A stretch of 64,000 bases of DNA from a phage, in sequence record OZ413489.1; one strand, written 5' to 3'. Both the position numbers and the translations under genes were made by a program. Every line of letters starts with the position of its first letter. Position 1 is the first letter of the stretch. The notes beneath the pieces are model-generated. The model searched no databases. It worked only from the letters and a program-made list of their open reading frames with translations, and was not told where the DNA came from. Shown piece by piece: positions 29,465 to 32,549 of the stretch.

Positions 29465-29860
29465 TTACTGAAACAGTGCGGATAAATTACCTTCTGGTGG
29501 GAACTTATCTGCCAAAAACGGTGTTAGCACAGTAGCCCTCTGAAGATCTGGGGTCCACTCGTTGTTCAGAACATCCCAGTAGTACGCAATGTTGCTGTGT
29601 GGGTGCCGCATTACGAACTTTTTCCCTTCGTAGTCATCTGAAACCTCTACAGAAGAAATAACAACAGAATCTTCAAGGGTTTCTTCATAGAAAGATCCAC
29701 CTTCAAATTTCCAACGAGATGCAAGAGCCCCTGCCTTGAACGCTGCAGATAACGGACTGTCGGCAAGAACATACATTTCTTGCACTCTGTCGCTGCGATC
29801 TTTGCTTCTTACGTTGTATACAGTATCTGAGCTATACTCAACACGGTATAGGCTTACCAT
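29465..29860 (-). CDS. hypothetical protein, paralog of 31667-32065
   Basis: 131 aa; shared block HP.S...YW(D/N)....WTP..........P.L. Confidence 0.55.
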   Translation of the reverse strand: MVSLYRVEYSSDTVYNVRSKDRSDRVQEMYVLADSPLSAAFKAGALASRWKFEGGSFYEETLEDSVVISSVEVSDDYEGKKFVMRHPHSNIAYYWDVLNNEWTPDLQRATVLTPFLADKFPPEGNLSALFQ

Positions 29861-30219
29861 TACCGAACCTCCTCAATAACTTCCACATCTGAACCTACCA
29901 CAAATGCAAAAGGACAGGTTTCATGAAAGATATCCGGATCGCCGCCAAGCTTGCTAACAATTTCTCCACCACTAATAAACACAAGCTCACCGATATTCAT
30001 CAGATTGCTGAAATAGTACCCATAATGATTAAAGAATGCAGCAGGGTCAGGTAGACTAGTAGCCTCAAGCACTACATCGGTTGAGGTTACTTTCTTATCA
30101 TAACCTCTCGCCTTTTGAGATGCAAGATCTGCAGAATCCTCAGGCGACCGGAGATGCACAGGAATTGTTTCACCAATAAAGCGTACTTTCATATTATCAC
30201 CCAACAACCATAGCTTCAA
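29860..30219 (-). CDS. small protein, distant member of the MKVK..D..AAGA family
   Basis: 119 aa; MKVRFIGE and VFISGGEIVSKLGG. Confidence 0.5.
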   Translation of the reverse strand: MKLWLLGDNMKVRFIGETIPVHLRSPEDSADLASQKARGYDKKVTSTDVVLEATSLPDPAAFFNHYGYYFSNLMNIGELVFISGGEIVSKLGGDPDIFHETCPFAFVVGSDVEVIEEVR

Positions 30220-30460
30220 AAGGAGTCATGAACGAATAAACGGCATCATCATCTGCTTCAGGGAATGCTCCCAAAGACTTCATATCTGAGCCCTTGACAA
30301 ATACAAGGTTTTGATCAAAGGCTTCTTGGGGGTCAATCCGATACATATTTCGTAAAATATCGCTTACCTCCTCATCAAGAGGTGAGTATGCTGTGCACGT
30401 TTTTCCGATCAAGCTTTGAGAATCAGGGTATCCACCTGAAGTTTTAAAATAAACAATCAT
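30197..30460 (-). CDS. small protein, distant member of the MKVK..D..AAGA family
   Basis: 87 aa; VFVKGSDMKSLGA. Confidence 0.5.
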   Translation of the reverse strand: MIVYFKTSGGYPDSQSLIGKTCTAYSPLDEEVSDILRNMYRIDPQEAFDQNLVFVKGSDMKSLGAFPEADDDAVYSFMTPFEAMVVG

Positions 30461-30551
30461 ATAGTATCACCTCTGGTAAGAGATTGGGACTCCTTTCCCA
30501 CAAATAATTACAAATCTTCCTTAGCGAGGAAGTATGCTAATCCAAGCAGGA

Positions 30552-30821
30552 TTATTCCTCTACAATCTCATACACATCAGGAGTTACAATCAACTCTTCT
30601 CCGTTACCCGGTGCAACAAACACCACCAAACCTTCAGGTGTGTGCTTTTTAGCCATCTCGATAACATCTTCTCGCAGAGCTGGCTCCATCAGATCAAAAC
30701 CTTCACCTAGGGCATCACGAACCACCTTCATATAGTCCACTGGTTGTGCTTCAACAATCATGCCTTCAACCAGTCCACAATTTTTGTCTGCCAGCTCAGT
30801 TTGGAATAATTTAATTTTCAT
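30552..30821 (-). CDS. small acidic protein, MK(V/I)(E/K)I family
   Basis: 89 aa; MKIKLF start, C-terminus YEIVEE. Confidence 0.5.
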   Translation of the reverse strand: MKIKLFQTELADKNCGLVEGMIVEAQPVDYMKVVRDALGEGFDLMEPALREDVIEMAKKHTPEGLVVFVAPGNGEELIVTPDVYEIVEE

Positions 30822-30958
30822 TTAGAGGTCTCCTCAATTATTTGATATTAATAGCCGTAACCTAACACATTAACTACAACTGCGATTGCAAACATAATTT
30901 CAAAGCATGCAATCTCTACATTTGGGACTAATTTCTTAATCACACCCATTGTAGCACC

Positions 30959-31276
30959 TCATTCTCCAAAGTCAATCTTTACTTTGCCTTTCCCCTTACC
31001 TTTCTTTCCACCGCATTTAGCCAGCTGACGTGCTGCAACATCTACCATACGGTCAGTTGCCTCGTAAGCATCACTGCCTTTAGCCTTGGCAATAACTTCT
31101 TTTCCAGAATTGTCAAAAATGAACGCCATAACTTCCTGGTGATCATTTTCAACTTTTACACTCACACGTGCATAGTTGGCAGAGGGATGCAAACGCTCCA
31201 ACTTAGACATTTTGTGGGAAATGAAAGACACCATACCTTCAGTGATTTCTACGTTGCCAGTGATTTCAATTTGCAT
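30959..31276 (-). CDS. ribosome hibernation promoting factor / RaiA-like protein
   Basis: 105 aa; MQIEITGNVEITEGM..F...KMSKLERL.....ARVSVKVEN resembles HPF/YfiA; Lys/Gly-rich tail. Confidence 0.65.
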   Translation of the reverse strand: MQIEITGNVEITEGMVSFISHKMSKLERLHPSANYARVSVKVENDHQEVMAFIFDNSGKEVIAKAKGSDAYEATDRMVDVAARQLAKCGGKKGKGKGKVKIDFGE

Positions 31277-31323
31277 AACGTGTTCCTTTTAAAGAAGAGG
31301 GAACCGAACCCTCTTTGAAAACA

Positions 31324-31352
31324 ATGATACTAAATCTGAAGCGTTGTGTCAA
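31324..31352 (-). promoter_or_regulatory. sigma70-type promoter on minus strand (TTGACA-17-TATCAT)
   Basis: Immediately upstream of the HPF-like gene. Confidence 0.5.
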
Positions 31353-31358
31353 CAGTTT

Positions 31359-31649
31359 TTACAGATTGTTGTCGATAGTTTTTAAAATATCCACAGCAAG
31401 ATCTGCCATTTTTCGAACATACTCTGCAAACTCAACAGGATCCTTGATCAAAGAATTCACAGGGTCGTACCCTAGAGCGTTCAAAATGGCTGCAGCATCT
31501 ACAACCTTCTCATCATTTGCGAAGATCTCTCCATCAAACTTGTAGGTCCATTTTGAGTCAATCTTGGCAGGGAATGATTGGTCAACGCTTGTTACACCAT
31601 CCTTTTTAAACGCTCCGGTGTTATCAGTGTCTAGAACTAAATCCATCAT
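31359..31649 (-). CDS. hypothetical protein
   Basis: 96 aa ORF. Confidence 0.5.
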   Translation of the reverse strand: MMDLVLDTDNTGAFKKDGVTSVDQSFPAKIDSKWTYKFDGEIFANDEKVVDAAAILNALGYDPVNSLIKDPVEFAEYVRKMADLAVDILKTIDNNL

Positions 31650-31666
31650 GTTAGTACCTCACCGTT

Positions 31667-32065
31667 TCAGTTTAGCTTTTCTTCAACAACCCCATAGCTC
31701 GGGACAGAGTCAAGAGCTTTCTGGTTTAAAAGTGGTGTAGCAGAATCTGCAAACGGTGTCCAAGTTTTTGTTCTGGCGTTCCAGTAATGCTTCACTCTGG
31801 AATCTGGATGCACTATAACAAAAACTTTTTCACTTGTCAACACATTAATTTCTTCCACACCCCTGCTGATAATTTCTCCGTCATATCCCCCGGTCTGGTA
31901 TCCTTCGTACCAGGTTCTTGCATAGGCATAGCCAGCCTGCCAGCATGCAGCCTCCTCCGAGGTGGAGACTACGTAGAAGTCTTTCTCAAATTCTGGGATA
32001 CGCCCTTGCTTTACGCTCCAAGCTCCGCGAATTTTCATTGTAACTTTGAATAGTTTATTTTTCAC
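31667..32065 (-). CDS. hypothetical protein, paralog of 29465-29860
   Basis: 132 aa; shares the HP.S...YW motif block. Confidence 0.55.
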   Translation of the reverse strand: MKNKLFKVTMKIRGAWSVKQGRIPEFEKDFYVVSTSEEAACWQAGYAYARTWYEGYQTGGYDGEIISRGVEEINVLTSEKVFVIVHPDSRVKHYWNARTKTWTPFADSATPLLNQKALDSVPSYGVVEEKLN

Positions 32066-32077
32066 AACGGTTACCCA

Positions 32078-32332
32078 TCACAGTTCTACAATATCTGCAT
32101 CTGACCCTGCCCCAAAGGCATAATAGGACTCTTCCCCGAAATAATATTCCGGTGCACCAGCAGCGATCAGGTCTGATCCCAAAATGAATACCACGTTGTG
32201 GCCTACATAGCTGTGATTTTGCCGCACAGGATCATCCCACGGCAACCCTTCGAAGTATACCGCAGGGACGACCTTTCCTTTCAGGAAGGATTGCCCCAAG
32301 TAGACGTTAGAATCAAGAATTTTAACCTTCAT
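32078..32332 (-). CDS. small protein, MKVK..D..AAGA family
   Basis: 84 aa; MKVKILDSNVYLGQ...DLIAAGA. Confidence 0.55.
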   Translation of the reverse strand: MKVKILDSNVYLGQSFLKGKVVPAVYFEGLPWDDPVRQNHSYVGHNVVFILGSDLIAAGAPEYYFGEESYYAFGAGSDADIVEL

Positions 32333-32549
32333 GATCGTCCTCCACTATCTCTACATCCTCACCTAGGGCAAAGTTGTAGGTCCACTGACTGTCAAAGCAT
32401 TCCTGAGATGCACCAGCGGCAATAAGATCTGCCCCTTTTATTTTTAAAAGGTCAGGGTAATCTTCGTTAGGGACAGCAGTAAACACTTTCCCTACTAAAG
32501 GCTCCTGACCAATATAGAAGCTTGAATCTAAAACTTTAACTTTCATCAA
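32322..32549 (-). CDS. small protein, MKVK..D..AAGA family
   Basis: 75 aa; MMKVKVLDSSFYIGQ...DLIAAGA. Confidence 0.55.
   Translation of the reverse strand: MMKVKVLDSSFYIGQEPLVGKVFTAVPNEDYPDLLKIKGADLIAAGASQECFDSQWTYNFALGEDVEIVEDDHEG

Follow-up and report, generated by a model that had tools for sequence, protein, structure and literature searches.

The open reading frame at 30959..31276 on the minus strand of the phage sequence studied here (record OZ413489.1; "the window" below is the whole analysed stretch of 64,000 nucleotides) is, with near certainty, the hpf/raiA-family gene of rV5-like coliphages, which encodes a single-domain "short" homologue of the ribosome hibernation factors and has a promoter of its own, for early transcription by the host sigma70 RNA polymerase. 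The gene, its annotation and its promoter have already been published, and their recognition in the window is a rediscovery, not a discovery. As to function, we give an even chance to the view that the protein docks on vacant host 30S/70S ribosomes in a salt-labile and RMF-independent manner, where it would play a RaiA-like role on idle ribosomes.

The gene, its phage and its promoter

30959..31276, minus strand: hpf-like gene (rV5 ORF144), coding for a 105-aa protein of the HPF/RaiA (Ribosomal_S30AE) family (open reading frame list and profile matches)
30961..30959, minus strand: stop codon TGA of the hpf-like gene
31284..31288, minus strand: Shine-Dalgarno sequence AAGGA, 7 nt 5' of the hpf ATG (read from the sequence)
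31296..31314, minus strand: hairpin AGAGGG-ttcggtt-CCCTCT with TCTTT directly after it, in the leader that separates P144 from the hpf Shine-Dalgarno sequence
31324..31352, minus strand: sigma70-type early promoter (rV5 P144), TTGACA-17 nt-TATCAT (consensus scan, 11 of 12 positions)
31352..31347, minus strand: -35 hexamer TTGACA of this promoter
31329..31324, minus strand: -10 hexamer TATCAT of this promoter

The reading frame starts with ATG, and the peptides MQIEITGNVEIT, KMSKLERL and ARVSVKVEN are all present in its translation. In the record of phage Murica a ribosome-binding site is annotated at a similar place, 7 nt 5' of the Murica hpf ATG. The 2.5 kb around the gene match 121 phage records, all of them Vequintavirus (rV5-like myoviruses), with Escherichia phage WalterGehring as the nearest genome (99.0% over 2.5 kb), and on this similarity the window is assigned to a Vequintavirus, that is, to an rV5-like coliphage. 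The hpf product is 100% identical to rV5 ORF144 (ABI79209), and a tblastn search of the phage collection recovered orthologues in about 118-119 phage records, with protein identities of 94-100%.

The original prediction had set the gene inside an array of small proteins and had given it its own minus-strand promoter at 31324-31352. The gene does lie within an array of small early genes, and the promoter agrees with the consensus at 11 of 12 positions, the same 29 nt being annotated as "Sigma70-type promoter; P144" in DQ832317. This rV5 record thus annotates both the hpf gene and P144. Nine aligned sequences, drawn from the Vequintavirus phages and from the sister lineage described below, all have the same -35 hexamer and flank, AAACTGTTGACAC.

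The hairpin in the leader was considered as a regulatory element and rejected. Although it appears as a local stem in both the MFE and the centroid folds, the 66-nt leader as a whole folds no better than its shuffles (z = -0.5). In addition, the hairpin is confined to the rV5 lineage. It corresponds to ~29 nt inserted in comparison with the sister lineage, in which the same GAGGG is itself the Shine-Dalgarno sequence, and two alleles carry an uncompensated mismatch in the stem. Such a structure could act as a 5' stabiliser or as a leaky terminator for upstream read-through.

Family membership

That the phage encodes a homologue of the ribosome hibernation factors, as originally predicted, is borne out by profile scores above the cut-offs, by sequence matches to proteins of solved structure, by the predicted fold and by the same annotation in more than 100 phage records. 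A profile search against the S30AE family, the check that had been proposed together with that prediction, gave matches above the curated cut-offs to Pfam PF02482 Ribosomal_S30AE (48.3 bits against a cut-off of 23.7, E=1.8e-12, profile positions 1-83 of 88) and to NCBIfam TIGR00741 "HPF/YfiA family" (45.9 bits against 40.9). The best sequence matches in the PDB were the E. coli HPF chains 2rql, 4v8h and 6h4n (E about 5e-12). Since these alignments span residues 1-89, the colinearity with HPF/RaiA that had been noticed at the N-terminus is real but is not confined to it, extending over the whole folded domain, and only the last 16 residues diverge from HPF. Sequence identity amounts to 43% with E. 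coli HPF (88 residues) and to 25% with RaiA, the RaiA query agreeing with the PDB at 112/113 residues.

The scores for the two named equivalogs were far lower than their cut-offs, with 55.8 bits against 125 for the short-HPF equivalog NF007780 and 17.6 bits against 158 for the RaiA/YfiA equivalog NF007654. The C-terminal dimerisation domain of the long (Gram-positive) HPFs is absent from the 105-aa protein, which contains a single Pfam domain and gave no further Pfam match. The protein is a member of the HPF/RaiA (S30AE) family, being neither an equivalog of E. coli HPF or RaiA nor a long HPF.

Predicted fold and C-terminal tail

31010..31276, minus strand: codons 1-89, folded beta-alpha-beta-beta-beta-alpha domain (AlphaFold2 model and Foldseek)
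30962..31009, minus strand: codons 90-105, Lys/Gly-rich tail GKKGKGKGKVKIDFGE (predicted disordered, pLDDT 38)

The AlphaFold2 model, built from an alignment of 50 sequences, has a mean pLDDT of 82.9, rising to about 90 for residues 1-80, and predicts strands at residues 2-7, 33-43, 46-55 and 60-67 with helices at 13-29 and 70-89. When this model was compared with the PDB by Foldseek, all 37 matches at E <= 1e-3 were HPF/RaiA/pY chains, the best of them with an rmsd of 1.0-1.1 A over 89 columns (1.0 A for V. cholerae HPF, 4hei, and 1.1 A for E. coli HPF in the 100S ribosome, 6h4n_x).

The tail GKKGKGKGKVKIDFGE stands where E. coli HPF has its C-terminus KDKLKQH, and carries a net charge of +4, the folded core having a net charge of -2, similar to the core of E. 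coli HPF. The sister lineage too has a basic tail, of different sequence, and the tail is truncated in a few isolates. An example is the Murica allele, cut to 99 aa within the KG tail, and the extreme C-terminus therefore seems dispensable. At the other end of the protein, some alleles (among those of phages nomo, V18 and Murica) have an extra Asn, TGNNVEIT, which brings the spacing at the beta1-alpha1 loop exactly to that of E. coli HPF.

Relatives and selection

Because a word-indexed homology search with the phage protein gave only 5 matches, an exhaustive HMMER search of 1.84 billion representatives (E <= 1e-3) was needed to show that it has no close cellular relative. This search returned only 22 proteins, among which the sole close one (P0004, 103 aa) is 65% identical, every cellular match having at most 45% identity. 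The gene for this close relative occupies the same position, within the same small-gene array, on metagenomic contigs of 124-126 kb. Along roughly one third of an 8-kb stretch these contigs match Vequintavirus, at only 73-76% nucleotide identity, and they represent an uncultivated sister lineage.

Alleles for the selection analysis were drawn from the phage collection, a scan of IMG/VR having given two loci. Among 12 Vequintavirus alleles (Nei-Gojobori) dN/dS ranges from 0.02 to 0.15, with dS up to about 0.9, which shows strong purifying selection on hpf. Synonymous sites are saturated when one phage lineage is compared with the other (pS about 0.8, with dN at 0.3), so that a between-lineage dN/dS is not computable and the within-genus values were used. 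The low identity to cellular proteins, the presence in two lineages, the dN/dS values and the conserved -35 hexamer argue that hpf is old in this phage group and not a recent capture from a host. No gene for RMF turned up when the window was searched by tblastn, or in any of the 50,697 phage records (E <= 1); the RMF query was identical to PDB 6h4n_v.

Neighbouring genes and record errors

The window contains no tRNA genes, and the ten open reading frames neighbouring hpf gave no Pfam match. Several of the small genes flanking hpf (29465..32549, minus strand) are paralogues of one another. The frame at 29465..29860 resembles that at 31667..32065 (E = 4e-10), those at 32078..32332 and 32322..32549 are alike (E = 2e-15, 42% identity), and those at 29860..30219 and 30197..30460 resemble this last pair more weakly. 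The resulting order, A-A-B, [ORF143, hpf, ORF145, ORF146], A-A-B, suggests that a module was duplicated on either side of the hpf block.

The hpf stop codon is followed, 9 nt further on, by a hydrophobic frame of 33 aa at 30848..30949 on the minus strand (rV5 ORF145, MGVIKKLVPNVEIACFEIMFAIAVVVNVLGYGY), which is preceded by a separate ribosome-binding site, GAGGTG. Several phage records annotate this frame, whose product is probably a small membrane peptide, co-transcribed with hpf. A promoter-like TTGACT-16-TACAAT with an upstream TG, at 30975..30948, overlaps the end of hpf and the ORF145 start codon. Another, strong sigma70-like site lies at 31812..31840 on the minus strand, inside the frame 31667..32065 (TTGACA-17-TATAGT with an upstream TG, 11 of 12 positions); the rV5 record, which annotates P144 and P150 (29446..29418 in the window), leaves this site unannotated.

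Mistaken labels are spreading through the public records of this locus. "ATP-dependent protease La type I", the label of the HPF gene in phages bov10K2 and the SA_NWU series, is a mis-annotation. In the Danish "nom", "nomo" and "nimi" series the name "sigma 54 modulation factor" is attached to the unrelated 89-aa ORF146 (30552..30821), which gave no S30AE match. In addition, 18 records of "Campylobacter phage" (MG0656xx, UNVERIFIED, with Campylobacter jejuni given as host) share 97-98% identity with rV5-like phages of E. coli in this region, which suggests misattributed hosts or contaminating coliphages.

Ribosome-contact residues

Beckert et al. 2018 (bioRxiv 10.1101/382572) and a 2025 cryo-EM preprint (10.1101/2025.10.07.680626) supplied the contacts made by enterobacterial HPF, which were mapped onto the phage protein by alignment. 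About 7 of the 16 reported ribosome/tRNA contact positions are kept or conservatively replaced, the remaining 9 being changed (E. coli HPF residue given first):

K23: kept, phage K22
K26: kept, phage K25
Q29: conservatively replaced, phage R28 (among diverse homologues, R occurs here most often)
H62: conservatively replaced by I (V is the commonest in diverse homologues)
R83: kept, contact to m4Cm1402
K87: kept
K91: kept
R33: changed to S (E-tRNA contact)
T53: changed to F (m2G966 contact)
H55: changed to F (contact to the uS9 C-terminus)
E60: changed to K (alignment-dependent)
K80: changed to V (T in the sister lineage)
T/N86: changed to A
K89: changed to G
K93: changed to G (E-tRNA contact)
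H95: changed to G (H95 stacks on G693)

Of the basic residues of helix 1 and helix 2 that contact 16S rRNA (E. coli K26, Q/R29, K80, R83, K87), the phage protein has K25, R28, R83 and K87, with K80 replaced by V, a position that is K in 103/103 enterobacterial and in 15/19 diverse homologues. The C-terminal K89/K91/K93/H95 segment of the short HPFs, which touches 16S rRNA, E-site tRNA and G693, has not been retained, reading G89, K91, G93 and G95 in a stretch predicted to be disordered. In S. aureus HPF, the combined substitutions K27A/R30A and K84A/R87A abolish ribosome binding (PMC4889938), and of these four binding residues (K27, R30, K84, R87) three are retained in the phage protein (K25, R28, R83).

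What was already known

The names given to the gene in sequence records vary between "sigma 54 modulation factor", "ribosome hibernation (promoting) factor" and "ribosome-associated translation inhibitor RaiA", RaiA being the RefSeq name for the phage protein. Mizuno et al. 2019 (Nat Commun, PMC6375957) counted rV5 HPF among the virus-encoded ribosomal proteins and tested it. The rV5 protein was produced from pBAD24 in strain NM522 of E. coli, with harvest at OD600 = 1, and was seen by MS in the crude extract; it was not recovered in 70S/100S ribosomes after a sucrose cushion with 500 mM NH4Cl, and its expression left the abundance of 100S unaltered. The authors name growth phase, a true loss of binding and dissociation in the salt wash as possible causes of the non-recovery, propose a competition with the host homologues and suggest, from sequence conservation, a relatively recent transfer. 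Mathieu et al. 2020 (PMC6969025) mention the gene in passing for five gut rV5 isolates. Beyond these two papers, full-text literature searches yielded no later functional work on the phage HPF and no data on expression during infection, binding or phenotype, and a 2025 preprint on the evolution of hibernation factors does not mention phages.

The further suggestion of the original prediction, that a phage copy could modulate host translation, is in this light a hypothesis with one weak negative result against it, since the published non-recovery may reflect the salt wash or the growth phase.

Proposed mode of action and its alternatives

The family, the fold, the selection, the syntenic retention in a sister lineage, the kept basic residues and the disordered basic tail all point to a protein that may still dock on ribosomes. 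In the proposed mechanism, the hpf product would enter the tRNA/mRNA channel (30S decoding site) of vacant host 30S/70S ribosomes, held there by the retained basic residues of helix 1 (K22, K25, R28) and helix 2 (R83, K87), with the flexible polylysine-glycine tail as an aid. With some nine contact positions and the entire C-terminal contact segment replaced, it would bind less tightly than host HPF does and be more sensitive to salt. Occupancy of the HPF/RaiA site on idle 70S ribosomes could then result in competition with the host hibernation factors or in shielding of rRNA from nucleases, and the ribosome pool would stay intact and readily re-usable for phage translation, instead of being driven into 100S dimers. 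Hibernation factors are described as guarding ribosomes against ribonucleases (PMC7913689, PMC8406268). A RaiA-like role is favoured over an HPF-like one because the phage searches revealed no RMF, the C-terminal contacts specific to HPF have been lost and 100S was not raised, and we infer that such a role would be protective or competitive. Against docking stand the presence of the protein in the extract but not in the purified 70S/100S fractions described by Mizuno 2019, the differences at 9/16 contacts (K80, K89, K93 and H95 included) and scores far below those of both equivalogs.

A more specific version of this proposal, which we regard as speculative and rather unlikely, would make the protein an anti-hibernation or ribosome-guarding factor, that is, a salt-labile, RMF-independent occupant of the HPF/RaiA site whose tail points toward the mRNA exit and the anti-Shine-Dalgarno region, blocking RMF/HPF-driven 100S formation or the entry of nucleases. 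If true, such a factor would leave ribosomes usable by the phage when its E. coli host grows slowly or is starved, for instance in the gut.

The main alternative, slightly less likely still, is that the fold has been neofunctionalised, with stable ribosome binding lost and the scaffold and basic tail serving some other target, be it a different RNA, a defence system or a host protein whose normal task is to sense or bind HPF. An expressed protein that is missing from salt-washed 70S/100S ribosomes, in the account of Mizuno 2019 (PMC6375957), would fit this reading, as would the change of 9/16 contact positions, the cellular identity of at most 45% across 1.84 billion representatives and the strong selection, which means that the protein does something; besides, a non-ribosomal partner, YwlG, is known for S. 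aureus HPF (PMC9522360). However, K25, R28, R83 and K87, the residues most tied to ribosome binding, are kept in both phage lineages, and the neighbouring genes, devoid of Pfam matches, suggest no other partner. The reading is further weakened by the conditions of the negative experiment, which used 500 mM NH4Cl and for which the passages describing it mention no host-HPF positive control (PMC6375957), high-salt washes being the standard means of stripping ribosome-associated factors (PMC4889938). A poorer prospect is canonical HPF action, whereby the phage protein would drive ribosomes, together with host RMF, into inactive 100S dimers and so aid the shut-off of host translation. Its closest solved relatives are short HPFs that work in this way, the identity to E. 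coli HPF reaches 43%, and RMF would be available from the host. Yet E. coli RMF is mainly a stationary-phase protein, the E-site tRNA and G693 contacts seen in the 100S structure (K93, H95) are now glycines, and an early global block of vacant ribosomes would hurt phage translation too; moreover, Mizuno 2019 reports no discernible 100S change upon expression of the phage protein in E. coli (PMC6375957).

The two remaining explanations are very improbable. A passenger gene, recently captured from a host and devoid of any phage role, would agree with the relatively recent transfer suggested by Mizuno 2019 (PMC6375957), but not with a cellular identity of at most 45%, a dN/dS of 0.02-0.15, a conserved promoter and retention in two lineages whose synonymous sites are saturated; a decaying passenger in particular is contradicted by the selection analysis. 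Modulation of RpoN-dependent transcription through sigma-54, as the original annotation has it, is almost certainly wrong. It is backed by the historical name in the rV5 record and its many derivatives, a name that appears to stem from the gene adjoining rpoN in enterobacteria, but the solved homologues that were retrieved are all either bound to ribosomes or described as ribosome factors, and the window holds no sigma-54 link. The sigma-54 modulator is accordingly a historical name only and, as a function, effectively refuted.

Significance

Phage copies of ribosome-binding proteins offer one of the few direct handles on the viral reprogramming of bacterial translation, and rV5 HPF, present in more than 100 isolates that include phages considered for therapy and biocontrol, is the best-sampled example. 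Earlier authors have already asked what the phage gains from an HPF copy. That question is sharpened, with the picture left unchanged, by what is added here, namely the residue map, the conserved basic tail, the lack of RMF in the phage records searched and the strong selection.

Comparison with known systems

The gene is the same as the rV5 ORF144 orthologues of other Vequintavirus phages (FV3, JES2013, Murica, BASEL phages), with which it shares its neighbours and P144. Other large myoviruses have an HPF-family gene independently, as shown by Cronobacter phage GAP32 (AFC21633) and by PHROG 8990. The window protein belongs to PHROG 12469, its match to phrog_8990 is weak (29 bits), and GAP32 was not retrieved with it by tblastn in the phage collection at E<=1e-3. 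GAP32 and PHROG 8990 form a separate group and represent a distinct, more divergent acquisition. A broader likeness exists with the phage-encoded bS21 and bL12, which are also copies of translation-apparatus proteins and were proposed to bias translation; unlike these, which were recovered in purified ribosomes, rV5 HPF was not (Mizuno 2019, PMC6375957).

E. coli HPF (YhbH; PDB 2rql, 4v8h, 6h4n) resembles the phage protein in having a single S30AE domain, about the same length and the same fold (rmsd 1.1 A), and the equivalents of its K23, K26, R83, K87 and K91 are retained. It differs in its helical basic C-terminus, which in the phage protein is replaced by a disordered KG-rich tail that is 10 residues longer, and in its effect on 100S, none being reported for the expressed phage protein (PMC6375957).

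The likeness to E. coli RaiA (YfiA, protein Y) extends to the family, the fold, the class of binding site and the presence of an extension beyond helix 2, and, judging by the single published experiment (PMC6375957), to the failure to promote 100S. YfiA is known to antagonise HPF (Beckert 2018, 10.1101/382572). The two proteins differ in their tails, that of RaiA being acidic and the 16-residue tail of the phage protein strongly basic, glycine-rich and unrelated in sequence. The RaiA tail is said, in work attributed to Polikanov et al. in 2012, to block RMF binding.
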